Source: Desulfobulbus propionicus DSM 2032
GTDB lineage: Bacteria > Desulfobacterota > Desulfobulbia > Desulfobulbales > Desulfobulbaceae
Length of the DNA stretch: 32,000 nucleotides
Assembly: GCF_000186885.1 (NCBI RefSeq)
Contig: NC_014972.1
Coordinates: forward strand, 1,860,001 to 1,892,000
Reading direction: 5' to 3'
A program made the position numbers and the translations under genes. Each line of letters starts with the position of its first letter. Positions within the stretch are counted from its first letter, which is position 1. Below the pieces are notes generated by a model. That model was not told the DNA's origin. It saw only the letters and a list, made by a program, of their open reading frames with translations, and ran no database searches. Shown piece after piece: positions 5,895 to 19,649 of this stretch.

Positions 5895-6500
5895 TCACCT
5901 GGTCAGCAGGCGGAGATTGATCGCCTCGACCCGCAGGCCGTGTGAACCGCGTCGCAGGAGATTGACCGCGCAATGGTCCTGGGGAAGCGCGAACAGGGTA
6001 CACAACGGCCGGTCCAGCAGACGGGAGAGAATCACCCGATTGACCCCGGCGTGGGCGACGACGAGCAGCGGACCGGGGTGCTCGTCGGCCAGCGCCCGCA
6101 AGGCCGGGAGGGCGCGGGCCGCCAGATCGGCGAAACTTTCACCGCCCGGAGGCCGGAAATGTTCCAGATCCTGGCCGCGCTGTTCATAGGCTCCGGGATA
6201 GCGGGCCTGGACCTCAGCCACGCTCAGGCCTTCCCAGTCGCCGAGATTGATTTCCGTCAATGCCGCCATCGATTGAATCTCGGCCAGCGGACGGTTGCCG
6301 GCCAGTGCGGCGGTGTGCAGCGCCCGTTGCAGGGGCGAGGAAAAGATATGGCTGAAGGTGAGCGCACGGAGCCGCTCGCCCACCATGCGCGCCTGGCGGA
6401 TGCCCTCTGCATTGAGCGGCAGGTCGGTCTGGCCCAGGAAGCGGCGCGGCGAGGATGTGTCGATCGCGCCGTGGCGAGCAAGAACGATCAGCGACTGCAC
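5895..6500 (-). CDS. Histidine phosphatase family protein (CobC / phosphoglycerate-mutase-like); last gene of the mop accessory module
   Basis: The GTG at 6500 gives VQSLIVLARHGAID (RHG motif), then SSPLQRALHTA and LVVAHAGVNR. This start overlaps the upstream gene stop (6488-6490) by 13 nt. The Arg/Gly-rich N-terminal extension of the 371-aa ORF is out-of-frame overlap with the upstream gene and is discarded. Confidence 0.8.
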   Translation of the reverse strand: MQSLIVLARHGAIDTSSPRRFLGQTDLPLNAEGIRQARMVGERLRALTFSHIFSSPLQRALHTAALAGNRPLAEIQSMAALTEINLGDWEGLSVAEVQARYPGAYEQRGQDLEHFRPPGGESFADLAARALPALRALADEHPGPLLVVAHAGVNRVILSRLLDRPLCTLFALPQDHCAVNLLRRGSHGLRVEAINLRLLTR

Positions 6501-7654
6501 GGTCGGCCGACGGTCTGCAGAATTTCGGCCACCGGCTGCCCGGCCTCGGCGGCGACGGCCTCGGCCAGGCCCACGGCCAGCTGGTAGCGCTCGCCGATGG
6601 CCCGCAATGCCTCGGCATCCTGCCCATAGAGGACCAGTTTTTCCTCGAAACGCTCGCTGAGATCGACCATCCGACTGCCGCGAACCAGCTTGTCGGCCAG
6701 ATGGACCAGTTCGCGTTCGCCGATGGCCCTCCCCGGCCGCCAATCCAGATCCTTGTGGGCGGCCACTATCTCCGCCGCCCGGGCAAAGCCCAGTTGCCGC
6801 AGCCAGCGCGCCCCTTCCTCCTCGTGTTCGGGATGCCCTTTGGCCAGGTCGTGCAGCAGGCCGCTGGCCCGGCACAAATCCGCGTCCAGCTGTTTGCCGC
6901 CGTGCCGGTTGACGGCGTTGCACAGGGCAACCGCCACCTCGGCCACCCGCTGGCCGTGGGCCAGCCCCTTGGCCGTCATGGGGTGGATGTGGTCGAGAAT
7001 GGCGGCACATTCGTCGCTGGCGGGGTATTCCTGGCGATGCAAGGCGTGGCGGGCGGCGAGATAGTCCTCCGGAGTATCCATGTCAAAATGGATGTGGGCA
7101 TCCGCCACCTGGACCTCCTGCACCATGGCCGGCCGCGCGGCCTCGACCTCTGCCAGGAGGGTGCGCAGGCCGCCCTCGGGTTGCCGCTCCCGCTTGATCA
7201 ACGGAATCAGTTCAGCGGCGAGCAGGGGCGGATGGCCGCGTCGGCCGGCAAACAGCGGGTAGAAGATGTGCCCGGAGTGCCGGACAAAGGCATCGGCCAG
7301 CCGTTTGATGGTGCCGCACCGCACCAGCGGAATGTCCACCGGCAGAAGGAAAAAGCCGCTTGTCCCGTCCCGAAGATCGTGCACCCCGGCGCGGATCGAG
7401 CTGTACATGCCGCTGGCGAAATTCGGATTGTGGGCCACCCGCGCGCCGACCCCTCGGGCCATGGCCCCTACCTCCTCGTGCCGATGACCGGTGACCACCA
7501 CCACCTCGTCAATACCGCACTGGCGGAACAGCTCCACGCACCGTTGCAGCACGGTTTGTTGCCCTTCCGTGGCCAGCGGCAGCAGGGCCTTGAGTTGCCC
7601 CATGCGCGAGGAAAACCCGGCCGCGAGGATCAGGGCGCTCAGGCGAGGTGCCAT
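6488..7654 (-). CDS. MobA/MocA-like NTP transferase fused to a C-terminal HD phosphohydrolase domain
   Basis: The N-terminal LILAAGFSSRMG...LLPVDIPLV is typical of molybdenum-cofactor nucleotidyltransferases. The C-terminal half carries GLLHDLAKGHPEHE and AAHKDLD (HD domain). The start overlaps the XdhC stop by 16 nt. Confidence 0.8.
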   Translation of the reverse strand: MAPRLSALILAAGFSSRMGQLKALLPLATEGQQTVLQRCVELFRQCGIDEVVVVTGHRHEEVGAMARGVGARVAHNPNFASGMYSSIRAGVHDLRDGTSGFFLLPVDIPLVRCGTIKRLADAFVRHSGHIFYPLFAGRRGHPPLLAAELIPLIKRERQPEGGLRTLLAEVEAARPAMVQEVQVADAHIHFDMDTPEDYLAARHALHRQEYPASDECAAILDHIHPMTAKGLAHGQRVAEVAVALCNAVNRHGGKQLDADLCRASGLLHDLAKGHPEHEEEGARWLRQLGFARAAEIVAAHKDLDWRPGRAIGERELVHLADKLVRGSRMVDLSERFEEKLVLYGQDAEALRAIGERYQLAVGLAEAVAAEAGQPVAEILQTVGRPCSR

Positions 7655-8688
7655 GCCTTGCGGCCGGTGGCCCGCTGATAGATCAGTTCGCCGACGACGG
7701 ACACCGCGATTTCTTCCGGGGTGTCCGCCTCGATGGCAAGGCCGATGGGGCAGCGCACCTGCTCCAGCTGGGCCTCGGTCACGCCCTTGTCCATCAGCCT
7801 GACATAGATGCTGTTGCGTTTCTTGCGGGAGCCGATCATGCCGATGTAGCCGGCCCCGGTCTGCAACGCCTGTTCGAGCACCTCCATGTCGTGCAGGTGG
7901 CCGCGGGTGACGATCACCAGATAGGCATCGCGATCAATATCCTCGCCCTGGAAGCAGCCGGCAAACGACGGCAGCACCCTGATCTCGTCGGCCGAGGGAA
8001 AACGCTCCTGGTTGGCGAATTCGCTCCGGTCATCCATGACCACCACCCGGAATCCGACCCGGGCCGCGGCCTCGGCGGTGCAGGCGGCCACGTGGCCGGC
8101 GCCGATCAGGTAGAGATTGCCGCCGACCGCGAACGAGGCGACCAGATAGCATTGCCCCGCCTGTTCCAGGACGGTGGCCGCCGAGGTGGAAGGCCGGAGC
8201 TGCTTGACGGCCGCGAGCAGGGCTTCGGAAACATCGGCGGCGGTTGTTCTGCCCTTGTGATCGACGACAAAGCGCTGTTCACCGTTGTGCGCTTCCAACG
8301 GGCTGACCAGAACGGCCCGGCGGCCCGATTCCATGGCCGCGAGCAGGTCGCCGAACACCGCCCGGTTGGACGCATCGGCCCGGATGCATTCCAAACAGAA
8401 TTCCATCCGTCCGCCGCAGATCATGTCGGTGACGGCGGCATCGCCGTTGGACAGATCAAAGGCATGGCAGCGGGAAACGCCGGTGGCAAAACAGTCTGCC
8501 GCTTCCCTGATGGCCGCAGCCTCGACCAGACCGCCGCCAATGGTGCCGGCGATGCGTCCGTCGCGAAAGACGATCATTTTCGCGCCCGCCACCCGGGGAG
8601 TGGACCCGGATTGGCTGCACACGGTGGCCAGAACAAGATCCTGACCGCTGTCCAAGGTGGTGCATATTTGCTGAATCAATTTTTTCAT
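7639..8688 (-). CDS. XdhC/CoxI-family molybdoenzyme maturation chaperone
   Basis: N-terminal XdhC_CoxI block VLATVCSQSGSTPRVAGAKMIV...GTIGGG and a C-terminal Rossmann-like block LYLIGAGHVAACTAEAAARVGFRVVVMDDR. ATGA overlap with the upstream ligase gene. Confidence 0.85.
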   Translation of the reverse strand: MKKLIQQICTTLDSGQDLVLATVCSQSGSTPRVAGAKMIVFRDGRIAGTIGGGLVEAAAIREAADCFATGVSRCHAFDLSNGDAAVTDMICGGRMEFCLECIRADASNRAVFGDLLAAMESGRRAVLVSPLEAHNGEQRFVVDHKGRTTAADVSEALLAAVKQLRPSTSAATVLEQAGQCYLVASFAVGGNLYLIGAGHVAACTAEAAARVGFRVVVMDDRSEFANQERFPSADEIRVLPSFAGCFQGEDIDRDAYLVIVTRGHLHDMEVLEQALQTGAGYIGMIGSRKKRNSIYVRLMDKGVTEAQLEQVRCPIGLAIEADTPEEIAVSVVGELIYQRATGRKAWHLA

Positions 8689-9995
8689 GGTGCTTGGTCC
8701 TTTCGCTGCTCATGGAGCACGCGTTTAGCGTAATGAATCAATGGTCCGGGAGCAAGGGTCAGCGCAACTTCCACCTCCCGGAGCGCCGGATATCTGGTCA
8801 GTTGGTCGGCGGCGGCACGACGCACCGCCTCGCCGTGGCCCGGCAGGGTGGTCAGGCACAGCCGCAGTTGTTCCCCGCCGTGATCGTCGGCGAGGGAGGC
8901 CGAGAAATCGAGCAGGCCGGGGAGGGCCAACAGCAGCTCGTCCAACTCGGGCAATGCCAGCTGGCCGCCGCCGCGCAGGGGGCGGACCTGGTTGAAACGT
9001 CCCGTCACTCTGTCGAGCCGCCGGATGACGCTGCCGCAGGGGCAGGAACCGGCGAGGAGGCGTCCCCGGTCGCCGGTGCGGTAGCGGATCAGCGGCATGC
9101 CGGTGCGGGTCAGGGTGGTGATCACGATCTCGCCCCACTGGCCCGCTGCCAGCGGAGCCGCGGTGCGGGGGTCGATGATCTCCACCAACAGATCGGATTC
9201 GCGCAGATGGCAGCCGCAATGGGCCGCGCAGTCCACTCCGCCGCCCAGTCCGGTCTCGACCGTGCCGTAATGGGAAAAGACCTCGCAGCCAAGCAGCTGC
9301 CGCAACCCGTGGCACACGCTGTCGGGAATGTAGTCGGAGCAGAGCAGCATCGAGCGGACCGGTGCCAGGTTCAGGCGTAGATGGGCGGCCATCCGCGCCA
9401 GGGCCAGCAGTTGCACCGGGAAACCGACCAGGACATCGGGCCGCAGTTCAGCAACCGCATGGGCGGCTGCCTGGGGATCGCTCACCAATCCGAGGAGATG
9501 GCTGTTGACCTGCATCCGCTCCAGGGCGCGGGCGAGCAGGTGGCCGGTGGAATCCGGGGTGGTGCCGGGGAGACAGATGGCCACCGTTTGCCCCGGATCG
9601 ACCATCTGTTCCATGCCCAGGTGAAAAAAGTCCAGGGTTCGCTCCAGATCCTCGGCGGTGAAATACAACCGCTTGGCCGCGCCGGTGGTGCCGGAGCTGT
9701 GCAGGGTGACGATCCTGGCCACGTCATCCAGACTGACGCACACCATCTCCGGGCCATGGGCACGCAGATCGGCCTCGGTGGTCAGCGGCAGGGCGTGCAG
9801 ATCCTCCAGGCCCCGCAGCCGATCGATACCGGCGGCGGTCAATGCGCGGCGGTAAAAGGCGGATCGATCACGGCAAGAGGCAACAAGCGAGCGCAGCCGT
9901 TCCGCCTGATAGCGGTCGATGGCGGCCCGCGACAACGGCCGGTTGGTTTCGCCAATGGCCTGGCCGATCAGCTTGTCCAGGGGGGTGGATTTCAT
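8685..9995 (-). CDS. PaaK-like adenylate-forming enzyme (phenylacetate-CoA ligase / F390 synthetase family)
   Basis: ATG 9995 overlaps the radical SAM stop (ATGA). Motifs are LHSSGTTGAAKRLYFT (AMP-binding core) and YRTGDRGRL. The size (436 aa) and N-terminal helical region resemble PaaK-type ligases rather than long acyl-CoA synthetases. Confidence 0.8.
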   Translation of the reverse strand: MKSTPLDKLIGQAIGETNRPLSRAAIDRYQAERLRSLVASCRDRSAFYRRALTAAGIDRLRGLEDLHALPLTTEADLRAHGPEMVCVSLDDVARIVTLHSSGTTGAAKRLYFTAEDLERTLDFFHLGMEQMVDPGQTVAICLPGTTPDSTGHLLARALERMQVNSHLLGLVSDPQAAAHAVAELRPDVLVGFPVQLLALARMAAHLRLNLAPVRSMLLCSDYIPDSVCHGLRQLLGCEVFSHYGTVETGLGGGVDCAAHCGCHLRESDLLVEIIDPRTAAPLAAGQWGEIVITTLTRTGMPLIRYRTGDRGRLLAGSCPCGSVIRRLDRVTGRFNQVRPLRGGGQLALPELDELLLALPGLLDFSASLADDHGGEQLRLCLTTLPGHGEAVRRAAADQLTRYPALREVEVALTLAPGPLIHYAKRVLHEQRKDQAP

Positions 9996-11401
9996 GGTTG
10001 CACCATGCCCCGATACAGGGGGCGCCCCTGCTGGGAGGTCAGGTTGTAGGCGCAAAAGGGGATGAGAAAACCCTGGGGCGATACCACGTGGATGCAGCAA
10101 CCGCGCAGCCGTTCGAGATCAAGATTCCACGCGTCCTGAAAGACCATGGCCGAAAGCGAAAAGGTATGGGTGCGGGCCCGGGCGAGGAAGCGGTCGAAAT
10201 CGTCCTGGGGCCGATCCGTGGCCGAGCAGGCGCAGGCGTCGGCTGGGGCCAGGGCAAGCGCGGGCAGGGACCACTGGCGGGCGGTGAAGCGGACGCTCTT
10301 TTCCCGTCCTTCCAGGGCGGTGGGAAGGGATGTCCTGGGCTCGCCGGTGGAACAGCAGGCTGCCTGCCCGCTGCCCAGAGGGGTCAGACGGCCATGCTCC
10401 TCGACCAGGAAGGTACCGTGGAAAGAGCACAGTGCATGTTCACAGGCCGGCGGGGCGAAATACTCGGCCAGCAGGGCTCCGTTGCTTTGCGCCTCGATCA
10501 GCTCGATCACTTCCGGCAGGGTCAGGCGCTCGGTGTCGGTGGGTGCCTGCGGATAACGGCCAAAATAGCTGATCGGTTGAAAATGCACCCCGCGCACCGT
10601 GGGCGCATGGCGGACGGCGTAGTCGATGATCGCCCCCACTTCGTGGGTATTGACCCCCGGAACCAGGGTCGGCACCAGCACCACCCCCAATCCGGCGGCA
10701 CCGCAGTGATGAATGGTCTGTTCCTTGATGGCGTGCAAATCGCGGCCGCGCAGGGTCTGGTGCGTGGAACGGCTCAGTCCGTCGAATTGGAGAAAGACCG
10801 AGGTTAGCCCGGCCTGTTTGAGGGAACGGGCGTAGTCCGGGTTTTCGGCCAGCCGCAGACCATTGGTGTTGAGCTGGATAAAGCCGAACCCCTTGTCCCG
10901 GCCCAGGGCGATGATGGCATCGAGATCGTCGCGCATGGTCGGCTCTCCGCCGGACAGCTGGATGTTGCAAGGGCCGGAGGCTTCGAGGATGCGGTCATAG
11001 AAGAATTCGATCCGCTCCAGGGAGGGATCGTCGTCCGCGCCGCTGGCGCCGGCGGCGGCGAAACAGACCGGGCAGCGCAGGTTGCACCGGGCGGTGATTT
11101 CGATCAGGGCGGTGCAGGTATGCTGCCCATGGTCCGGACAGAGGCCGCAGTCATGGGGGCAGCCGGCGGCAACGGCCGTTAAGGGCCGGCGGGGTGCGGA
11201 GGGTTTTTTCGGTCGCAGCCAGGTGGCAAACGGAACAGCACCCCGCCAAATCACCGTGCGGAAGGTGCCGTGATCCGGGCACTCCTTGACCAGGTAGACG
11301 GCGTCGCCCTGCTGTTCACGGATCGCCGCCACCCGTTTGAGACAGACCGGGCAGAGGCTGGCGGTCGACGACAGCAGTTCGATGGTGCGCTCAGCCCCCA
11401 T
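9992..11401 (-). CDS. Radical SAM protein with an N-terminal Cys4-type zinc ribbon
   Basis: N-terminal CPVCLKRVAAIREQQGDAVYLVKECPDHGTF, then the CX3CX2C cluster motif ITARCNLRCPVCFA, then a Cys-rich C-terminal extension. 469 aa. Overlaps both neighbouring genes. Confidence 0.85.
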   Translation of the reverse strand: MGAERTIELLSSTASLCPVCLKRVAAIREQQGDAVYLVKECPDHGTFRTVIWRGAVPFATWLRPKKPSAPRRPLTAVAAGCPHDCGLCPDHGQHTCTALIEITARCNLRCPVCFAAAGASGADDDPSLERIEFFYDRILEASGPCNIQLSGGEPTMRDDLDAIIALGRDKGFGFIQLNTNGLRLAENPDYARSLKQAGLTSVFLQFDGLSRSTHQTLRGRDLHAIKEQTIHHCGAAGLGVVLVPTLVPGVNTHEVGAIIDYAVRHAPTVRGVHFQPISYFGRYPQAPTDTERLTLPEVIELIEAQSNGALLAEYFAPPACEHALCSFHGTFLVEEHGRLTPLGSGQAACCSTGEPRTSLPTALEGREKSVRFTARQWSLPALALAPADACACSATDRPQDDFDRFLARARTHTFSLSAMVFQDAWNLDLERLRGCCIHVVSPQGFLIPFCAYNLTSQQGRPLYRGMVQP

Positions 11402-11846
11402 GGATCTGCTCCCGGGGCAGGCTGGGGTCGATGTTGTGCTCGGTCAGGAGGGCAAGCAGGGTTTCGCGGGCACGGATCATGATGTCGCCGCAGACTTCCG
11501 GCTTGCGTCCCCCCTGATAGGCGACGATGTCATCGCAGCGGATTCCTCCCCAGGCAGTGGCGCCTTGCTTGAACCAGTCCATGAACTGGGCGAGCATCAG
11601 GGGATAGCAGTCCAGGGGGTGTTCGGCAACGCTGCCCTTGGCCGTGTACAAGGCAATGATGCAGGCTGCGGCGCTGGCCACGCCGCACAGCTCGCCGCTG
11701 CCCGCGCCTTCGCACAATCCGGCCATGGCCCGAACCAGGGGAATGTTGTCCTCGCCCATGTCTTCGAGGGTGAGTTGGATCATGATCTGGCTGCAGCAGA
11801 ATCCCTGTCCAGCCAGTTGCATGATGCGCAGCGCGGTTTCATCCAT
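11391..11846 (-). CDS. C_GCAxxG_C_C family Cys-rich (putative redox-active) protein
   Basis: 151 aa with conserved Cys positions GFCCSQ, LCEGAGSGELCGVASAAAC (a variant of the GCAxxG core), IRCDD and EVCGD. Overlaps the methyltransferase stop by 8 nt and the radical SAM start by 11 nt. Confidence 0.75.
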   Translation of the reverse strand: MDETALRIMQLAGQGFCCSQIMIQLTLEDMGEDNIPLVRAMAGLCEGAGSGELCGVASAAACIIALYTAKGSVAEHPLDCYPLMLAQFMDWFKQGATAWGGIRCDDIVAYQGGRKPEVCGDIMIRARETLLALLTEHNIDPSLPREQIHGG

Positions 11847-12585
11847 GGAAGGCCCCCTTGTCGGCGATCAGCGCATAGTAGCCCAGCGGCGCCGTGGCCA
11901 GGGCGCAGGCCGTGGTGCGGGCGGCGGTCGTATCCATGAACAGCGACCAGAACTGTTCCAGGCTGCCGTGGGAAAAAATGATCTGTCCGGCCAGTTGCTT
12001 GAGCAGGTCACTGCGGTCGCGGAGCAGGGCGAGGGAAAATCCGGCCTGGTGCAAGCCGCTGGTGATCGTCTCCAGGGGCAGGGCCTGGGCGATGCAACTC
12101 TTCAGGGGCGGCAGCTGCGGCCGCTGGGAATGCTTGCAATAGATGTCGGTGAGGAGCAACGAGCCGCCCGGCCGCAGCACCCGATGCATTTCCTTGAGGC
12201 TGGCCTGCGGGTTGTCGGTCAGCGACAGCGCGCATTCGCAGAGCACGGCGTCGAAGGCGGCATCCGCGCAGGGAAGGGCAGCGGCTGTTCCCTGGTGGAG
12301 GGTCGCGGCGGGCGCCCGGAGGGCGGCCTTGTCGAGCATGAAGGCCGAGGGGTCAAGACCGCTGGCATCCAGGGCGAATTCGTCCGCCATCAGCGCCAGG
12401 CTGTGCCCGGGACCACAGCCGATATCGAGCACCCGAGCACCCGGAGGCAGACGGCAGAAACCGAGCAGTTCCCTGGTCAGCTCCAGGCCCCCCGGCCGCA
12501 GGGTGCCGCCGGTCAGGGCGGACAACGGTTCCTGTTCGTACAGGGGAACAGAGGGGGAGGCCGGGCAGGAACGGATCGCGTTCAT
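11839..12585 (-). CDS. Class I SAM-dependent methyltransferase
   Basis: ATG 12585 lies 1 nt after the upstream stop (12587-12589). Motif I is ARVLDIGCGPGHS, with downstream FDAVLCECAL and LRPGGSLLLTD. The longer 305-aa ORF start would overlap the upstream gene. Confidence 0.8.
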   Translation of the reverse strand: MNAIRSCPASPSVPLYEQEPLSALTGGTLRPGGLELTRELLGFCRLPPGARVLDIGCGPGHSLALMADEFALDASGLDPSAFMLDKAALRAPAATLHQGTAAALPCADAAFDAVLCECALSLTDNPQASLKEMHRVLRPGGSLLLTDIYCKHSQRPQLPPLKSCIAQALPLETITSGLHQAGFSLALLRDRSDLLKQLAGQIIFSHGSLEQFWSLFMDTTAARTTACALATAPLGYYALIADKGAFHG

Positions 12586-12586
12586 C

Positions 12587-12796
12587 TCATTTGTCCTCCA
12601 GCAGTTGTTCGACTTCCAGCATCTTGCCCATGGCCAGGCTTTCCGGCACGAGAACGAAGCCGCATTGCGGGCAGGCCATGAGTTCGACATTGAACACGGA
12701 ATGGAGATAACGGACATTGACCTTGGCCGGCTGCAGCGGTTGATGGCACGCCGCACACTGCCAATCCGTGGCCTCGATAAAGGAAAAGGTGCTCAT
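12587..12796 (-). CDS. Small 4-Cys zinc-ribbon protein (69 aa)
   Basis: MSTFSFIEATDWQCAACHQ...MACPQCGF has two CxxC pairs. ATG 12796 overlaps the upstream stop (ATGA). Its position and coupling argue that it is translated. No family assignment is possible without an HMM search. Confidence 0.6.
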   Translation of the reverse strand: MSTFSFIEATDWQCAACHQPLQPAKVNVRYLHSVFNVELMACPQCGFVLVPESLAMGKMLEVEQLLEDK

Positions 12797-15099
12797 GGGG
12801 TCTCCTGGGGCAGGTGCATGCGGTGGCTGTAGCCGTTGTGCAGGATGTAGCCCGCCGCGGTCGGCTCGTATTCGATCCAATAGGTCACCCGTACCGGCTT
12901 GAGGCAGGCCAGGCGATGCTGGTTGGCCGGGTTGATCAGGTACCTGCCCGTGGCCTCGGCGTGATGAATCACCTTCCGCGCTTCGTCCTCAAGGATGTGG
13001 CGGCTGTTGAGCCGATCCATCACCTCCGGGCTGACCAGCAGGGAAAGGGCGGTGTGCTCGGGCCGGGAGGCGGCGGTTTCTCCCCACAGGTCGGTCAGCA
13101 ACTGCTCCTTCAGCCGGACTCGGTTCTCGTGCCGCAGGGAAAAGCCGGGATTGGCCCGGCCCAGGGGATCGCTGCCGTCGGACGCGGCAAAGAGATAGTC
13201 AAGCAGGTGGGCCACCGGCCGCCCGGCAGCGGCCAGATTGTCGCGGCACATGGCGCAATAGGCCAGGCCGCACTGTTCGCTCCGCTCCGCCTTGACCAGG
13301 GCGGCCTTGCGGCCGAGCTGCTGGTCGGCGAACTGCATCAGGCCGCCATAGCCGCAGCAGTCGGCCAGTTCGCCGTTGTAGGCGTGCTCGACAATCGGGA
13401 GGCCGAGCTTGGCGCAAAGGCTGCGCACGCTGGCGCGCATCGCCTGCTGCCGCCGGGCGGTGCAGGGATCGTGCAGGGCCAGCGGTGCGGTCGGCGTGGC
13501 GGGAAGGTCGGTCGGCAGTTCCAGGCCGTCGAGCACCTCCCACAGAGAAATGGTTTCGATGTCCGCGGTAAATTCCTTGAACACGGACAGACAACTGGAA
13601 CAGGCGACGATCACCCTCGGCCGTCCCAATCGTTCGATCTCGGTCTTGAAGTGGTGCAGGGTCTGCTGGAACACTTGCCGCTGTCCGGCCCAATGGGCCG
13701 GGATGCCGCAGCAGTCGAGCATCAGGCCGACGCCGCCTTCCAGGAGCGAGGCCAGCAGGTCGTAGGTTTTTTTGACCGTCTCGGGGGCTGATCCGGCCAG
13801 CTGGCAGCCGGGATAGAAGAGATGGCGGCTGGCGTTGGTTCCCGGCTGGTGACGACTGAGGCGGCAATACTCGCTTTGGCTGAAACGCATGTCTTCCAGG
13901 GCGAAATCATGCGGCGACGGCGGCATGTGATTGCTGTCGACCATGTCCTGCCGGGCGGCGCGGCACACTTCGGCCACGGGAAAATCGTTGGGACAGATCA
14001 CCGTGCACTGGCCGCAGAGGCTGCAGGCATTGATCATCCGGTTGGCGTTGCGGGTGCCCTGGACAATGGCCTGATTGTTGTACATCTTGCGCACCAGGGT
14101 CTTGGGATATTCGTTGTACTGCCGCAGATAGACGCACTGTTTGACGCATTCCATGCACTCGCAGCGGATGCAGCGGCTGGCCTCGGCCCGCGCCTCGGCA
14201 GCCGTGTAGCCGCTGTCCGGGTTGGCCGGAACGATTGCGGCCAGCGACGCATGACCGGTGGTGACGGTCACCATGCGGGTGGTGCAGCTGCCTTCCTTGT
14301 CGCGCTGGGCGGTGAGCGAAACCTTCTGCAGGAAGCGTTCGATCGACAACGCGGCCCGGCGGCCGTTTTCAACCTGCTGGATAACCGAAAAAGGATTGCC
14401 GGCCTCGGTGCCGCCGCCGGCAAAACAGCCGTCGCGGCCAAGGGCGAGGGTCAGGGGATCGGGGACACCCTGCGGCAAGGGAAGCAGGGCCGGGTCAACA
14501 TCGTCCCAATCGAAATACACCGCGTCGGCGTGGCCGATCAGGGCCTCGATGGCCTGCGGATCAAGGGAAGTTGCGGTGCGCAGCACAACGCCGTATCCGG
14601 CAAGGGTGGCTGCGGCTTGGGCAAGCGCATCGTTTGGCAGTGTCGATTCGGGCAGACGGCAGAGGCTGCCGCCAAGCGTGGCGCTGCCGGTGATCAGGGT
14701 GGTCGCCCGTCCCTTTCGCATGAGGTCGAGGGCGGCGGTCATACCCGAGAGGCCAGCGCCAATGATGGTCACCGCACCCTGTTTGGCGGGAAGTTTCGGC
14801 AGTTTGACCATGGTCTGGGTGGTGCTGACACAGTATTGTTCCAGCCTGCCGATGGCGAGCGGATCGCCGATTTCGCCGCGTTTGCAGAAAGGCCGGCAGG
14901 GCTGATCGCAGAGGCGGCCGACGATTTCCGGAAACGGCATGGTCCGGTCGAGGATTTTGCGGGCGTCGCGCACGTTGCCGTTGGCCAGGCAGGCCATGAA
15001 GGCGCGGACATCGACGTGAATGGGACAGGCGGCCGTGCAGAATGGCTGTTCTTCCTGGATGCAACGGGATTCGAGTTCTCTGAGCTGCGGTTGATCCAT
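12793..15099 (-). CDS. Multidomain oxidoreductase fusion: FeS N-terminal region, FAD/NAD(P)-binding domain, 2x[4Fe-4S] ferredoxin domain, two CCG (HdrD/GlpC-like) domains and an uncharacterised C-terminal domain
   Basis: 768 aa. The N-terminal FCTAACPIHVDV...CDQPCRPFC resembles the GltD/DPD-type FeS region. Dinucleotide fold VTIIGAGLSGMTAALDL. Ferredoxin motifs CIRCECMECVKQC and CSLCGQCTVICP. CCG-type motifs YPGCQLAGS...MLDCCGIP and LHDPCTARR...LADCCGYGG. Confidence 0.8.
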   Translation of the reverse strand: MDQPQLRELESRCIQEEQPFCTAACPIHVDVRAFMACLANGNVRDARKILDRTMPFPEIVGRLCDQPCRPFCKRGEIGDPLAIGRLEQYCVSTTQTMVKLPKLPAKQGAVTIIGAGLSGMTAALDLMRKGRATTLITGSATLGGSLCRLPESTLPNDALAQAAATLAGYGVVLRTATSLDPQAIEALIGHADAVYFDWDDVDPALLPLPQGVPDPLTLALGRDGCFAGGGTEAGNPFSVIQQVENGRRAALSIERFLQKVSLTAQRDKEGSCTTRMVTVTTGHASLAAIVPANPDSGYTAAEARAEASRCIRCECMECVKQCVYLRQYNEYPKTLVRKMYNNQAIVQGTRNANRMINACSLCGQCTVICPNDFPVAEVCRAARQDMVDSNHMPPSPHDFALEDMRFSQSEYCRLSRHQPGTNASRHLFYPGCQLAGSAPETVKKTYDLLASLLEGGVGLMLDCCGIPAHWAGQRQVFQQTLHHFKTEIERLGRPRVIVACSSCLSVFKEFTADIETISLWEVLDGLELPTDLPATPTAPLALHDPCTARRQQAMRASVRSLCAKLGLPIVEHAYNGELADCCGYGGLMQFADQQLGRKAALVKAERSEQCGLAYCAMCRDNLAAAGRPVAHLLDYLFAASDGSDPLGRANPGFSLRHENRVRLKEQLLTDLWGETAASRPEHTALSLLVSPEVMDRLNSRHILEDEARKVIHHAEATGRYLINPANQHRLACLKPVRVTYWIEYEPTAAGYILHNGYSHRMHLPQETP

Positions 15100-15200: not shown

Positions 15201-17918
15201 TTATTTGGGCATGGCGGCCAGCACCTTCTCCGGCAGGGCCGGGAGGTGACGGATGCGTGCGCCGCAGGCGTTGTAGATACCGTTGATCACCGCGGCGTGC
15301 GGCGCGGTCAACGGCATCTCGCCCACGCCGGAAGCGCCAAAGGGGCCGTCCGGGCGCGGGGTTTCCACATAGAGGATCTCCATGTTGTCCGGGATCTGCT
15401 TGATGTACGGGAAACCGGCTCCGGCAAGCGTCGAGTGCTTCTTGATGTCCTCGAAGTCCTCGGTCAGCGCCAAACCGATACCCTGGGCCAGACCGCCGTA
15501 AATCTGGCCGTCGACCACCAGCTTGTTGACCACCTTGCCGACATCGGCCACGCAGACCATGCTTTCCACCGTGGTCTTGCCGGTGGCTTTTTCCACGGCC
15601 ACCTCGGCCATGAACAGACCATACATGTAGCAGCAAAACGGCTTGCCCTGACCGTTGGCGTCGCAGTCATTGGCCGGTGCCGTCCATTTGCCGCGCACCT
15701 TGGTCGGAAGACCTTCGGCCACCATCTCCTCATAGGTCCGGTAGCTGCCGTTGGCCTTTTTCATCGACTTGATCAGATCCTCGCAGGCCACCCGGATCGA
15801 CTGGCCGACCACCACCTGACTGCGGCTGCCGCCGGCAGGACCGGAGTTGGGGCACTTGCTGGTGTCGTTCATTACCAGCTTGATCTGGTTGACGGAAAGC
15901 GCCAGTGGCCGCAGGGCCTCGTGGGCGGTGGCCAGGGTTCCCATGTCCGCGCCTTGGCCATGATCCTCCCAGGCGTTGTAGACGGTCACCGTGCCGTCGG
16001 GATGCAGCTCGACATCGGTTTCGGCGGTGTCGGGGCCATCCAGACCGGCACCGTAGATGCCGATGGCCACGCCGACGCCTTTCTTGACGGCATCGGTGGA
16101 TTCCGCCGCCACCCGTTTCTTGGCCGCCTCATATTTGGGCCGCAGCTTGTCGATCATCTCCGGCAGTGAATACACTTCCGGGTCCTGGCCGGTGGGGGTG
16201 GTCGCTCCTTGGCGGTAGACGTTCTTATAGCGCAGTTCGAGCGGGTCCATGCCCAGTTTCTCGGCCAGTTCGTCCATCAACACCTCGGAGGGGAACTCGG
16301 CCTCGGGTGCGCCGTAGCCACGGAAGGCGGCGCCCCAGGCATGGTTGGTGCATACGGTGCGGCCTTCGCCACGGATGTTGGCGATATCGTATCCGGCACC
16401 GATGTACTGGGCGCCACGCAGGGTCAGCAGGTCACCGAACTCGGAGTAGGGACCGTGATCCACCGACCAGTCGGTTTCCATGCCCAGCAGTTTGCCGTCC
16501 TTGCTCGCCGCGTACCGCACCGTGGTCCAGAAGGGCGAACGCTTGCCGGTGTAGATCTGCTGCTGCGCATAATCGTAACACAGGTAGACCGGGCGGTTGG
16601 TGGCCATGGCGGCCGCACCCACCAGGGCTTCCATGGTCGGGCTGAATTTGTAGCCAAAGGTGCCGCCGGTGTTGTTCTGGATCAGAACCAGGTTCTCCGG
16701 TTCCACGCCCAAACCGGGGGCAATCATGTACAGGTGGAGATGGATGCCGATGGACTTGGAGTGGATGACCAGCTTGCCGTTGTCGTCATGGTAGGCATAA
16801 CCGACATCCGGTTCGATCGGCAGATGGGGTTGACGGCTGGTGTAGTAATCGCCCTCGACCACCACGTCGGCCTTGTCGAAGACGGGCTTGGTGTCCTCGC
16901 CCTTGGCGATCTTCTGGATGTAGTAGATGTTGGGGGTACCGGGATGGATCTCGATCGCATCCGGTTCCATGGCCGCCGGCGCGCTCATGTAGGCGGGCAG
17001 TTCTTCCAGCTCGACCTTGACTTTCTTGGCCGCGGCCTTGGCGTTCTTCTCGGTGTCGGCGCAGACAATGGCCAGGGCGTCGCCATACTGGAACACCTTG
17101 GTGTCGCACAGGATCGGGCGATCCCAGCCATCCCCCTTGTTGGTGGGGAAGGTGATCAAACCGGTGATCCGGTTCTTGCCCTTGATGTCCTTGTGGGTGA
17201 CCACCTTGAACACGCCGGGCATCTTCTCGGCCTCGGAGGTGTCGATGGAGAGAATGTTGGCATGCGAAACCTCGGCCTGAACCAAGGCCAGGTGGAGGGT
17301 GTTTTCCGGAAGCTGGAGGGCGGAGTCCGCACCGAAATCCCAGGTGCCGGTCACCTTGGCGGCAGCGCTGGGGCGCGGCATGCTGGTGCCCAGGACCTTG
17401 CCGTCCGCGGGTATCTTGTAGGCCAGATCCTGCATGCTGATCTCGCCTTTGAGCACCCGCACCGCGTCACGGACCGCGTCGACCAGCATCTTGTAGCCGG
17501 TGCAGCGGCAGGCGTTTTTATATTTCTGGAACCATTCGCGAATTTCTTCGCGGGACGGATCGGGATTGGCATCGATCAGGGCCTTGGCCGAAACGATGAA
17601 GCCCGGGGTACAAAAACCGCACTGGGCGCCGCCGTGCACCATCCAGGCCATTTGCAGGGCATGGAGATCCTGGGGGGTGCCGATACCCTCGATGGTGGTA
17701 ATGGCCGCGCCGTCGGGAACGCGTTCCATCTTGGTGATGCAGGAGCGGATCAGTTTGCCGTCCATGATCACATTACAGGCGCCGCACTGTCCCTTGCCGC
17801 AACCGACCTTGGTGCCGGTGAGGCGCAGGTTCTTGCGGATAACGTCGGACAGCAGGTCAGCACCCTCGGTGACCACCGACCGCTCGATCCCGTTGACGTA
17901 CAATGTTTTTTTCTGCAT
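15201..17918 (-). CDS. mop: Mop-type molybdenum aldehyde oxidoreductase (2x[2Fe-2S] plus molybdopterin domains, no FAD domain)
   Basis: ATG 17918 is preceded by GGGAG. 905 aa. The N-terminus MQKKTLYVNGIE...CGKGQCGACNV...GAQCGFCTPGF...ACRCTGY closely parallels my recollection of Desulfovibrio gigas MOP. It also has the Mo-domain GGTFGYK and the active-site region GASGVGEMPL. Confidence 0.92.
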   Translation of the reverse strand: MQKKTLYVNGIERSVVTEGADLLSDVIRKNLRLTGTKVGCGKGQCGACNVIMDGKLIRSCITKMERVPDGAAITTIEGIGTPQDLHALQMAWMVHGGAQCGFCTPGFIVSAKALIDANPDPSREEIREWFQKYKNACRCTGYKMLVDAVRDAVRVLKGEISMQDLAYKIPADGKVLGTSMPRPSAAAKVTGTWDFGADSALQLPENTLHLALVQAEVSHANILSIDTSEAEKMPGVFKVVTHKDIKGKNRITGLITFPTNKGDGWDRPILCDTKVFQYGDALAIVCADTEKNAKAAAKKVKVELEELPAYMSAPAAMEPDAIEIHPGTPNIYYIQKIAKGEDTKPVFDKADVVVEGDYYTSRQPHLPIEPDVGYAYHDDNGKLVIHSKSIGIHLHLYMIAPGLGVEPENLVLIQNNTGGTFGYKFSPTMEALVGAAAMATNRPVYLCYDYAQQQIYTGKRSPFWTTVRYAASKDGKLLGMETDWSVDHGPYSEFGDLLTLRGAQYIGAGYDIANIRGEGRTVCTNHAWGAAFRGYGAPEAEFPSEVLMDELAEKLGMDPLELRYKNVYRQGATTPTGQDPEVYSLPEMIDKLRPKYEAAKKRVAAESTDAVKKGVGVAIGIYGAGLDGPDTAETDVELHPDGTVTVYNAWEDHGQGADMGTLATAHEALRPLALSVNQIKLVMNDTSKCPNSGPAGGSRSQVVVGQSIRVACEDLIKSMKKANGSYRTYEEMVAEGLPTKVRGKWTAPANDCDANGQGKPFCCYMYGLFMAEVAVEKATGKTTVESMVCVADVGKVVNKLVVDGQIYGGLAQGIGLALTEDFEDIKKHSTLAGAGFPYIKQIPDNMEILYVETPRPDGPFGASGVGEMPLTAPHAAVINGIYNACGARIRHLPALPEKVLAAMPK

Positions 17919-18111
17919 GAGGTACTCCCATGAAAGTTTGAGATAAATCAACGCGGCCTTGCCGCATGGTGTGAAATCAGGCCGAATGACGACCCCGCGG
18001 AAGGGGGGCCCGGCAGAGCCGTCCAATTCAGCCCGACAAACGGATACACGACACGCAACCAGACAGCCTGGGCCGCGTACCCCGCTTGCATTCTTGCCGT
18101 TTTGCGGATCA

Positions 18112-18282
18112 GAGGCGCAGGGTCACAAGGAGTAAAGGCCCTGCGCCTCCTTTCCGGTGGAAACGTGAAACGCGGGACGCGAAACCGCGCCCCGCAACGC
18201 CAACCACAGCGTAACTTGGGTGAAGAATGCCGGTGAAGCCCGCACAGGCCAAGTCAGGGAAAACAGGGGCAGGCTCCACCGG
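18112..18282 (-). promoter_or_regulatory. Highly structured region in the adh-mop spacer; candidate riboswitch-like or attenuator leader (class unassigned)
   Basis: On the minus strand, CCGGUGG (18282-18276) can pair with CCACCGG (18160-18154). These enclose two hairpins: AGCCUGC...GCGGGCU and GCGGGgCGCGguuuCGCGuCCCGC. A perfect 11-bp hairpin GAGGCGCAGGG-N16-CCCUGCGCCUC (18149-18112) follows immediately. Confidence 0.3.
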
Positions 18283-18300
18283 AGTTTGTGAAAGCGGTCG

Positions 18301-18330
18301 ATGGTTCCCGCGCGGGAGCACGGGAACCAT
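18301..18330 (-). terminator. Perfect 10-bp hairpin 10 nt after the adh stop (weak or partial terminator)
   Basis: ATGGTTCCCG (18301-18310) and CGGGAACCAT (18321-18330) are exact reverse complements with a 10-nt loop. On the minus strand only CGACCGCTTTC follows, which is a short U-tract, so read-through into mop is plausible. Confidence 0.4.
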
Positions 18331-18340
18331 CTTGTTTGTC

Positions 18341-19522
18341 TTACAGCGCGGCGGTGTAGATCGCCTTGACGTCGGCGTCTTTCGGGCAGCGCGGGTTGGT
18401 CAGACCGCAGGCATCCTTCTGGGCATTGGCCACCATGGTGTCGATGTCGGAGGCCTTGACTTCCTTGCCATACTTCTTGCCCAGCTCGATCAGGCCAGCC
18501 GGGATGCCGATGTCGGCGGACAGCTTGCGGATAGCCACCAGGGCCAGCTCGGCGGCGTCGCGCGGGGCCAGACCAGCGGTGTTCTCGCCCATCAGCTCGG
18601 CGATCTTGACAAAGCGGTCCATCTTGGCGATTAGGTTGAACTTCTCCACATGGGGCAGGAGAATGGCGTTGCACTCGCCGTGCGGCAAGTCATAGAAACC
18701 GCCCAGCTGATGGGCCATGGCATGGACGTGACCCAGGCTGGCGTTGTTGAAGGCCATGCCGGCCAGATACTGGGCAAAACACATGCCTTCGCGGGCTTCG
18801 ATGTCCTGGCCATTGGCCACGGCCGGACGCAGGTACTTGGCGATCAGCTCGATGGCCTTCTCGGCGGCGGAGTCGGTCATCGGGGTGGCGATGGTGGACA
18901 CATAGGCCTCGACCGCGTGGGTGAGGGCGTCCATGCCGGTGGCGGCGGTCAGTGCCGGCGGCATGCCAACCATGAGCATCGGATCGTCGACGGCGATGCC
19001 GGGGGTGACGCGCCAGTCAACGATGGCCATCTTCACGTGACGGGAGGTGTCGGTGATGATGCAGAAGCGGGTCATCTCCGAGGCGGTGCCGGCGGTGGTG
19101 TTGACCGCCAGGTAGGGGGGCATGGGCTTGGAGGATTTGTCCACGCCCTCGTAGTCATGGATCTTGCCGCCGTTGGCGACCACCAGGCCAACGCCCTTGC
19201 CGCAGTCATGGGAAGAACCGCCGCCGAGGGTGATCAGGGAGTCGCAGTTCTCTTTCTTGTAGATGTCGACGCCGTCATGCACGTTCTTGTCGGTGGGATT
19301 GGGGATCGTTTCGTCATAGACCACGTAGGCCATGCCCGCGGCTTCCAGCAGGTCGGTGATCTGTTTGGTGATGCCGGCACCGGTGATGCCCTTGTCGGTG
19401 ACGATCAACGGCTTGGAACCGCCGAGGGCCTTGATTTTGTCCGGGATCTGCTTGGCGGCGCCAATGCCGATCAGGGTTACAGAGGGAATGAAATAACCGT
19501 AGACTTGTTCACGAACTGCCAT
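18341..19522 (-). CDS. Iron-containing (group III) alcohol dehydrogenase
   Basis: ATG 19522 is preceded by AAGGATGG. 393 aa with GGGSSHDCGKG, ALTHAVEAY and HVHAMAHQLGG (Fe-ADH metal and NAD motifs). The 37 codons upstream in the ORF track lack an SD and overlap the promoter. Confidence 0.92.
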   Translation of the reverse strand: MAVREQVYGYFIPSVTLIGIGAAKQIPDKIKALGGSKPLIVTDKGITGAGITKQITDLLEAAGMAYVVYDETIPNPTDKNVHDGVDIYKKENCDSLITLGGGSSHDCGKGVGLVVANGGKIHDYEGVDKSSKPMPPYLAVNTTAGTASEMTRFCIITDTSRHVKMAIVDWRVTPGIAVDDPMLMVGMPPALTAATGMDALTHAVEAYVSTIATPMTDSAAEKAIELIAKYLRPAVANGQDIEAREGMCFAQYLAGMAFNNASLGHVHAMAHQLGGFYDLPHGECNAILLPHVEKFNLIAKMDRFVKIAELMGENTAGLAPRDAAELALVAIRKLSADIGIPAGLIELGKKYGKEVKASDIDTMVANAQKDACGLTNPRCPKDADVKAIYTAAL

Positions 19523-19617
19523 AATGAAACCATCCTTTTGTAGTGTTAGGGTTCCTCTCGTCCTACCTAAAATTCCTGCCTCTCTTTGGTACCAATGAAA
19601 CGCGTACCCTTCTAAAG

Positions 19618-19632
19618 GCAAAGGGTGTGCCA
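19618..19632 (-). promoter_or_regulatory. Sigma-54 (RpoN) -24/-12 promoter for adh
   Basis: The minus strand reads TGGCAC-ACCCT-TTGC, an exact match to the TGGCAC-N5-TTGC consensus. The -12 element lies about 95 nt upstream of the adh ATG. Confidence 0.7.
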
Positions 19633-19649
19633 TGATAAAAATATATTAT

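Follow-up and report, generated by a model that had tools for sequence, protein, structure and literature searches.

TrsS of Desulfobulbus propionicus: a cysteine-form member of a bacterial sister family of the archaeal tetraether lipid synthase

The radical SAM enzyme annotated as 7,8-dihydro-6-hydroxymethylpterin dimethyltransferase (HMPTM, a class D radical SAM methylase) is the same protein, MJ0619, as the archaeal tetraether lipid synthase Tes, and Tes itself is not a methylase. The authors of the MJ0619 structure could not corroborate pterin methylation and considered a polar molecule such as methanopterin unlikely to sit in its hydrophobic active site (PMC9433317). The HMPTM name nevertheless persists on Pfam PF23545, and some JGI records apply it to homologues of TrsS, a family of radical SAM (seleno)proteins. 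TrsS is listed in a review (PMC13188914), where it is credited to Haft & Tolstoy 2025 (mSystems 10:e0141724). Searching the literature for TrsS and for the locus tags DVU_1551-1559, we found this one table entry and incidental mentions in omics studies, and no experiments on any TrsS.

We analysed a radical SAM gene in a 32,000-nucleotide stretch of the Desulfobulbus propionicus DSM 2032 chromosome (the window). The frame at 9992-11401 on the (-) strand is free of stops, and its product aligned with positions 2-441 of the TrsS model NF045646 with a score of 683.9 bits (cut-off 490). Relatives at 56-77% identity carry the NCBI name TrsS. In a 52-sequence maximum likelihood tree, in which bacterial homologues passing the Tes model stood in for archaeal Tes, the protein fell within the TrsS clade (SH-aLRT 99), and the Tes-positive group formed its own (100). 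Pfam recognised PF23545 Zn_ribbon_HMPTM at residues 10-53 (E 1.6e-19) and PF04055 Radical_SAM at 100-261 (E 6.4e-20), in agreement with the zinc-ribbon and CNLRCPVC motifs that the first-pass annotation had picked out. That annotation had also assigned the protein to the Tes/'HMPTM' clade, and this proved correct: TrsS matched 7tol with E 1.5e-91, at 39-40% identity to 7TOM/7TOL over ~400 aligned residues, and its AF2 model (pLDDT 85.8) aligned with 7tom at Z 45.6 and rmsd 2.6 over 410 residues (VIA, AF2 model), with a Foldseek TM of 0.76. Where it had cited the pterin dimethyltransferase and Tes as two exemplars of the clade, there is only one protein. The next structural match was MoaA (GTP 3',8-cyclase, Z 22), which has the radical SAM core in common with TrsS but lacks the rubredoxin domain and has a different C-terminal cluster; TrsS scored 75 bits against the MoaA cut-off of 284. 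Pfam found no SPASM domain in TrsS, and the best scores to SPASM-family models (35-62 bits, cut-offs 265-725) came from the radical SAM core only; the protein belongs to the Tes/'HMPTM' lineage and not with SPASM or anSME maturases. The product is an ordinary TrsS, of a family already named, and the family is the bacterial sister of archaeal Tes/GDGT-MAS. It shares with other members the full-length match, the clade, the DVU_1551-1559 neighbours and the conserved Cys/Sec position, here in its Cys rather than its Sec form; nothing notable sets it apart. Neither the protein nor its operon is a new kind of system.

The gene and the sites that we could place within it are as follows.

9992..11401, (-) strand: trsS, radical SAM (seleno)protein TrsS, Cys form, 469 aa (NF045646)
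11270..11353, (-) strand: rubredoxin-like metal site C17-X2-C20-X20-C41-X2-H44 (Pfam 'Zn_ribbon_HMPTM'), spacing as in 7TOL
11129..11161, (-) strand: N-terminal auxiliary [4Fe-4S] motif C81-X3-C85-X2-C88 plus H91, invariant in all groups
11063..11086, (-) strand: radical SAM cluster motif C106-X3-C110-X2-C113 (PF04055), invariant
10052..10429, (-) strand: predicted C-terminal auxiliary cluster ligands Cys325, Met419, Cys435 and Cys450, from conservation with Tes
10442..10444, (-) strand: Cys320, cysteine counterpart of the family selenocysteine, five residues before ligand Cys325

Judged by alignment, TrsS retains all four metal sites of Tes, with the ligands in register with those published for Tes. 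The first, CPVC...CPDH at residues 17-44, has a spacing identical to that of the mononuclear Fe site of 7TOL (C9X2C12X20C33X2H36), and its four columns are invariant in 50/50 grouped Tes-family sequences. Between it and the radical SAM motif CNLRCPVC (residues 106-113) lies a second CX3CX2C motif, CPHDCGLCPDH at residues 81-91, which the first-pass annotation had overlooked; C81, C85, C88 and H91 are the counterparts of the [4Fe-4S]N ligands of Tes (C73, C77, C80 and a His). The C-terminal cluster of Tes, [4Fe-4S]C, is held by three Cys and one Met. Cys325, Cys435 and Cys450 are the sole C-terminal cysteine columns invariant in both TrsS and the Tes-model-positive homologues, and Met419 aligns with Tes Met439.

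Relative to Tes, TrsS has the additional conserved cysteines Cys96, Cys233, Cys320 (Sec) and Cys436. At the Cys320 codon, four other genomes (L110, L131, L162 and L163) carry a single in-frame TGA within the motif PPG-U-ENALCSFHG, downstream of which the frame remains open and the sequence conserved. The position is Cys in 22 of 26 subclade a sequences and is missing in subclade b and in Tes; Cys349/350 are missing in subclade b as well, so that neither Cys320 nor Cys349/350 can be needed for the core reaction. SECIS-like hairpins following the TGA of the four Sec forms folded no more stably than shuffled sequences did (z +1.2 to +1.9) and were rejected. Two shortened proteins considered as Sec truncations, P0118 and P0110, were uninformative: the first of these cases diverges from about residue 340 onward in one protein, and the other protein stops at a contig end.

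The identity to 7TOM/7TOL and the four retained metal sites might suggest that TrsS is a true Tes orthologue joining alkyl chain ends, a bacterial tetraether or membrane-spanning lipid synthase, and surveys have counted bacterial Tes homologues, those of Desulfobacterota included, as candidate brGDGT makers (PMC8941075; PMC11868695). We consider this extremely improbable. The Tes model NF045702 gave TrsS 361.2 bits, below its cut-off of 450, and aligned well at residues 13-336 only. Tyr459, which archaeal Tes proteins conserve strictly, is replaced by Val439 in D. propionicus TrsS, and Tyr occupies this column in 0/35 TrsS sequences compared with 10/10 Tes-positive homologues. Two Tes insertions, of 20 and ~23 amino acids, are both absent. 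Residues 326-405 could not be aligned with Tes. Between Cys325 and Met419 the sequence is unrelated to Tes and has a median length of 90 residues against 103; the AF2 model shows one helix with low-confidence loops there, whereas amphipathic helices build the second lipid pocket of Tes. From the deletions and the single residue at Tyr459, we infer that the pocket may have been lost. Moreover, TrsS sits in a redox and molybdenum operon and not among lipid genes, and the same phylum has separate Tes-positive genes, which, like a third group of homologues there, have no TrsS-type neighbours.

All the neighbours of trsS match bespoke NCBIfam models, the set built on Desulfovibrio vulgaris DVU_1551-1559, above their cut-offs.

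5895-6500, (-) strand: histidine phosphatase (PF00300)
6488-7654, (-) strand: MocA-like NTP transferase with HD domain (NF045665, 435 bits)
7639-8688, (-) strand: XdhC-family maturation factor (NF045664, 423 bits)
8685..9995, (-) strand: DVU_1553-family adenylate-forming (PaaK-like) ligase (NF045666, 448.5 bits, cut-off 300), its ATG overlapping the trsS stop (ATGA)
11391..11846, (-) strand: DVU_1555-family C_GCAxxG_C_C protein (NF045669, 150.6 bits, cut-off 103)
11839..12585, (-) strand: DVU_1556-family class I SAM methyltransferase (NF045667, 234 bits, cut-off 155)
12587..12796, (-) strand: DVU_1557-family 69-aa CxxC...CxxC redox protein (NF045645, 106 bits, cut-off 60)
12793..15099, (-) strand: GltD-like flavoprotein fused to an HdrD-like 2x[4Fe-4S] + CCG protein (NF045663, 1001 bits; Pfam Fer4_20, Fer4_17 and CCG)
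15201..17918, (-) strand: Mop-type molybdopterin aldehyde oxidoreductase, AOR (NF045668, 1710 bits)

The methyltransferase upstream of trsS, with the C_GCAxxG_C_C gene in between, is arranged as first described. A longer methyltransferase frame, to 12756, is an over-extension since orthologues have stops in it. Of 20 Desulfobacterota loci, 17 share the gene order, as do most of 80 further loci from Bacillota, Chloroflexota, Campylobacterota, Nitrospirota, Actinomycetota and others; the order of the operon is conserved in at least six phyla. The ligase adjoins TrsS in 20/20 loci, 9/10 further TrsS loci and 77/80 loci, and the C_GCAxxG_C_C protein is present in 77 and the methyltransferase in 73 of the 80. 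The conserved module, which has TrsS at its centre, comprises the HdrD-like CCG protein, DVU_1557, an ArsM/UbiE-like methyltransferase, the C_GCAxxG_C_C protein, TrsS and the PaaK-like ligase, and in most carriers, D. propionicus among them, it is joined to the Mop-type AOR and to genes for maturation of the cytidylyl-molybdopterin cofactor.

This setting lies behind the proposal that TrsS and the methyltransferase alter the molybdopterin cytosine dinucleotide that is supplied to the AOR. trsS has the AOR gene to one side and the XdhC and MocA-HD genes to the other, and stop codons overlap start codons; among the 80 loci an AOR is close by in 66 and XdhC in 52, and 29 of 30 AOR-family genomes have TrsS. 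The molybdopterin gene setting noted in the first-pass annotation (XdhC, MocA-like/HD) is real and conserved. It is not obligatory. No AOR over the cut-off was found in 11 of 40 TrsS genomes, and subclade b has no AOR, XdhC or MocA near TrsS and no NF045668 match anywhere in the genome. Subclade b still retains TrsS and the methyltransferase, mostly the HdrD-like protein, and the ligase in 8/9 loci; the TrsS module is therefore not tied obligatorily to the molybdenum cofactor. The AOR of the operon matches 1dgj and 1sij/1vlb with E = 0 and is an orthologue of 1dgj and 1vlb. The native high-resolution structures 1dgj and 1vlb are reported to hold ordinary molybdopterin cytosine dinucleotide, which would count against the proposal if their source strains carry TrsS. 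The sole argument from homology, the 'HMPTM' activity of MJ0619, is not reproducible, and with a hydrophobic Tes pocket it lends no support to a pterin substrate (PMC9433317). The idea of pterin modification by TrsS rests on an annotation since overturned, and we regard modification of the cofactor as very unlikely. The TrsS substrate is probably neither an archaeal-type lipid nor a pterin.

The constant link of TrsS with small cysteine-rich proteins raises the possibility that its substrate is one of its neighbours, DVU_1557, the C_GCAxxG_C_C protein, the HdrD-like protein or the AOR, in which it might form, for example, a thioether or selenoether link or help to assemble a cluster. A low-confidence, Cys-bearing loop stands in place of the lipid-pocket elements, and the Cys/Sec position adjoins the auxiliary cluster, as a protein maturase might have it. 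Searches of the locus with Pfam and NCBIfam profiles, on the other hand, turned up neither a leader-peptide-like substrate nor a RiPP recognition element nor a SPASM domain, the ligase and methyltransferase are better suited to small-molecule chemistry, and part of subclade b lacks the C_GCAxxG_C_C protein. A role as a protein maturase is, in our judgement, unlikely.

The methyltransferase suggests a further scheme, modelled on the arsenosugar and arsinothricin pathways, in which TrsS would form a carbon-metalloid (As/Se) bond and the ArsM-like enzyme would then methylate the product. Apart from its own family, the next-best matches of the methyltransferase are mostly arsenite methyltransferase families (60-98 bits), and Sec forms and Cys-rich partners exist. 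These scores are far under the ArsM cut-offs, the loci that we examined contained no ars genes, and the scheme is pure analogy and highly improbable. A comparison of the conserved cysteines of the methyltransferase with those of ArsM gave no convincing mapping, and we dropped the point.

Taken together, the balance tips slightly towards Tes-like radical chemistry for this Cys-form TrsS, acting on what we guess to be a thiol or selenol small molecule or a partner protein. Its proposed mechanism is drawn wholly by analogy with Tes. SAM would be cleaved at the radical SAM cluster, and the 5'-deoxyadenosyl radical would take a hydrogen from an unactivated substrate carbon. The C-terminal cluster, or Cys320 next to it (a Sec in some species), might then catch the substrate radical, yielding a C-S/Se or C-C bond. 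As substrate we would guess at a small molecule related to thiols or selenols, or else at a partner protein, in either case one that would serve the HdrD-like redox partner; this partner may in turn be the outlet for electrons from the aldehyde oxidoreductase. Since some CCG proteins are not disulfide reductases, the case for a thiol cofactor is weak. TrsS is accompanied in most subclade b loci by the HdrD-like half alone, without the flavoprotein half, and the partners are NarI-like or HGD/Bcr-type. A fuller model, decidedly doubtful as a whole, is that the module makes or recycles a novel thiol or selenol cofactor or protein-bound group. In it, TrsS would use Cys/Sec320 and its C-terminal cluster to form a C-S/Se bond at an unactivated carbon, and the HdrD-like protein would take the product as its redox substrate and serve as the physiological electron outlet of Mop-type AORs and, in other lineages, of NarI-like or Bcr/HGD-type partners.

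These results bear on how such genes are read. The 'pterin dimethyltransferase' label should not be passed on to further genes, and surveys of bacterial tetraether (brGDGT) producers should not count TrsS genes as Tes. TrsS occurs in hundreds of anaerobes of several phyla, and nearly all Desulfovibrio-type molybdenum aldehyde oxidoreductases come with it. No enzyme other than Tes is known to join two inert sp3 carbons via an iron-sulfur-cluster adduct, and TrsS is a close structural cousin of Tes.

The first-pass annotation reported a radical SAM gene with an N-terminal zinc-ribbon-type motif, and this observation was borne out: 9992–11401 on the (−) strand is a stop-free reading frame whose 469-aa product carries PF23545 (Zn_ribbon_HMPTM, residues 10–53, E 1.6e-19) and PF04055 (Radical_SAM, residues 100–261). 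The motifs quoted in that annotation lie at residues 17–44 and 106–113, and between them is a third that it had not mentioned, CX3CX2C with His91 (residues 81–88). NCBIfam identifies the product as radical SAM (seleno)protein TrsS (NF045646, 683.9 bits against a cut-off of 490), and the model for the tetraether lipid synthase Tes (NF045702) gives 361 bits, below its cut-off of 450. NCBI records of database homologues at 56–77% identity are named TrsS, and a few JGI homologue records still read '7,8-dihydro-6-hydroxymethylpterin dimethyltransferase'. The neighbors of trsS are all co-directional and abut or overlap, the ligase ATG and the trsS stop sharing ATGA, and each matches its own NCBIfam model, labelled by Desulfovibrio vulgaris locus tags.

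Neighbors of trsS and their NCBIfam matches
NTP transferase/HD protein, DVU_1551 family
XdhC-related AOR maturation factor
8685–9995 (−), AMP-dependent ligase, DVU_1553 family
C_GCAxxG_C_C protein, DVU_1555 family
11839–12585 (−), methyltransferase, DVU_1556 family
12587–12796 (−), 69-aa CxxC..CxxC protein, DVU_1557 family (NF045645, 106 bits)
GltD-like/HdrD-like fusion
15201–17918 (−), molybdopterin aldehyde oxidoreductase (AOR)

Since every neighbor has its own model, the gene set at this locus has been catalogued; the window trsS is an ordinary member of an already named family, and there is thus little new in the gene. In the literature found, TrsS fills one table row of a 2026 review, which credits Haft & Tolstoy 2025 (PMC13188914). 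The methyltransferase starts at 12585; a longer ORF (11839–12756, 305 aa) is an over-extension, as the added part of that frame is interrupted by stops in orthologues, and a different frame encodes the DVU_1557-family protein. In the family of the ligase (P0123), four cysteines are nearly invariant: Cys86, Cys256 and Cys318-x-Cys320, the last pair positioned after the TGD hinge motif. To our knowledge, PaaK-like adenylating enzymes do not usually have four such cysteines, which may build a metal site or supply an acceptor thiol. Orthologues of the window AOR have been crystallised from D. desulfuricans and D. gigas (1dgj, 1sij/1vlb). Directly upstream of the window AOR gene on the same strand is an Fe-type alcohol dehydrogenase gene (18341–19633; pair, 15201–19633), a pairing repeated in several close Desulfobulbus loci (88–93% identity; L086, L087, L091–L093) and not seen in most other phyla.

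The first-pass annotation had placed TrsS in a clade exemplified by a pterin dimethyltransferase and tetraether synthase. The closest solved relative is indeed Tes, also called GDGT-MAS (7tol, E 1.5e-91). In a structural comparison of an AF2 model (pLDDT 85.8), the top match was 7TOM (Z 45.6, rmsd 2.6 Å over 410 residues), the runner-up being MoaA (Z 22). The two exemplars are, however, one protein, MJ0619, which was originally annotated as a pterin C-methylase and is actually the tetraether synthase; Lloyd et al. failed to corroborate the pterin activity, and the active site is a hydrophobic channel unlikely to bind a methanopterin-like molecule (PMC9433317). The homology case for a pterin substrate therefore collapses, leaving the earlier interpretation supported only in part.

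We aligned 35 TrsS with 10 bacterial homologues passing the Tes model (484–576 bits), a third Tes-like group and one tandem pair. Cys17, Cys20, Cys41 and His44 are invariant across groups with the CX2CX20CX2H spacing of Tes, whose 'zinc ribbon' holds rubredoxin-type iron in the solved structure (7TOL). Also invariant in every group are Cys81, Cys85, Cys88 and His91; Cys106, Cys110 and Cys113; and Cys325, Cys435 and Cys450. Met419, aligned with the labile Tes Met439, is invariant in TrsS and the Tes-positive group. With these ligands kept, TrsS is expected to hold each of the four Tes metallocofactors. The third group (L070–L073, L084; ~450 aa) falls below both cut-offs and has His at the Met position; no partner genes were found next to its members or next to Tes-positive homologues. 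The tandem pair, in G251 (L083), consists of highly divergent paralogues.

TrsS also departs from Tes. Tes Tyr459 is placed 4.2 Å from the carbon of the substrate and shows strict conservation across 1,000 archaeal homologues (PMC9433317); the window TrsS has Val439 instead. Tyr occupies this position in 10/10 Tes-positive homologues and 0/35 TrsS. TrsS also lacks Tes insertions of 20 residues before the Cys325 position and ~23 residues before Met419, and its segment between these sites, modelled as one helix with low-confidence loops, does not align with Tes. Conserved cysteines of its own are Cys96, Cys233 and Cys436, with Cys320 and Cys349/350 additionally in the AOR-linked subclade. In four loci from Desulfobacterium-like genomes (L110, L131, L162, L163), the Cys320 codon aligns with a single in-frame TGA (PPG-U-ENALCSFHG; ~position 9925–9940 in each locus), five residues before cluster ligand Cys325, and conserved sequence runs ~150 codons beyond it. 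Read from this alignment, the TGA site locates the putative redox-active residue behind the family's '(seleno)protein' name. A common hairpin ~21 nt after the TGA in the four forms was indistinguishable from shuffled sequence. Residue 320 lies, by sequence position, beside the auxiliary C-terminal cluster, which in Tes forms a carbon-sulfur intermediate.

TrsS exceeded its cut-off in 40 of 401 sampled genomes of the phylum, none with internal stops, and a second set scored 210–433 bits. The order AOR, flavo/HdrD protein, methyltransferase, C_GCAxxG, TrsS, ligase recurred in 17/20 fetched loci, some with XdhC, MocA-HD and a phosphatase next after the ligase. A scan across species genomes turned up at least 589 relatives; the top 80 belong to Desulfobacterota, Bacillota (e.g. 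Clostridium tyrobutyricum, Acetobacterium fimetarium, Oscillibacter valericigenes), Chloroflexota, Campylobacterota, Nitrospirota, Actinomycetota and others. Partners at these 80 loci were C_GCAxxG and ligase (77 each), HdrD-like protein and methyltransferase (73 each), AOR (66) and XdhC (52). Sequence comparison suggests whole-operon transfer. Two loci of the window's genus (L026, L051; G128, G016) have TrsS grouping with family f44, 45–47% identical to the window protein; uncultured Desulfobulbus records reach 75%.

The link to AOR is asymmetric. TrsS was present in 29 of 30 genomes with an AOR family member above its cut-off, and 11 TrsS genomes had no such AOR. In two of these (G221, G261) the AOR gene is truncated at the end of a contig or may be located past such an end; the other nine (L058–L065, L049; G118, G151, G182, G212, G270, G371, G243, G324, G321) form their own TrsS subclade (SH-aLRT 97). 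We found no AOR, XdhC or MocA near TrsS in these nine genomes. Their loci retain the methyltransferase (9/9), the ligase (8/9), an HdrD-like CCG protein (most) and C_GCAxxG (some), and in 5/5 examined a separate 91–92-aa ORF corresponds to the last ~95 aa of the 768-aa fusion protein in the window. Here what is kept of the module (in full, HdrD-like protein, DVU_1557, methyltransferase, C_GCAxxG_C_C, TrsS, ligase) is joined to other neighbors: a NarI-like membrane subunit, HGD/Bcr-type genes (HGD-D/BcrAD) with activase, or other genes. That the module occurs with no AOR, XdhC or MocA nearby in nine genomes argues against an obligate pterin substrate.

Beyond the observed architecture, metal ligands, Sec site and gene linkage, analogy with Tes suggests that TrsS would cleave SAM and take H from an unactivated carbon, and that either the C-terminal cluster or Cys/Sec320 may capture the substrate radical. 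As substrate we rank first either a partner protein or a small thiol/selenol-related molecule that would serve the HdrD-like protein, followed by a pterin, organo-metalloid chemistry and, fourth, a lipid. From the genome comparison, it seems that AOR needs the module, while the module is independent of AOR and the molybdenum cofactor; after the methyltransferase and the ligase, the associate kept most constantly would be the HdrD-like redox partner.
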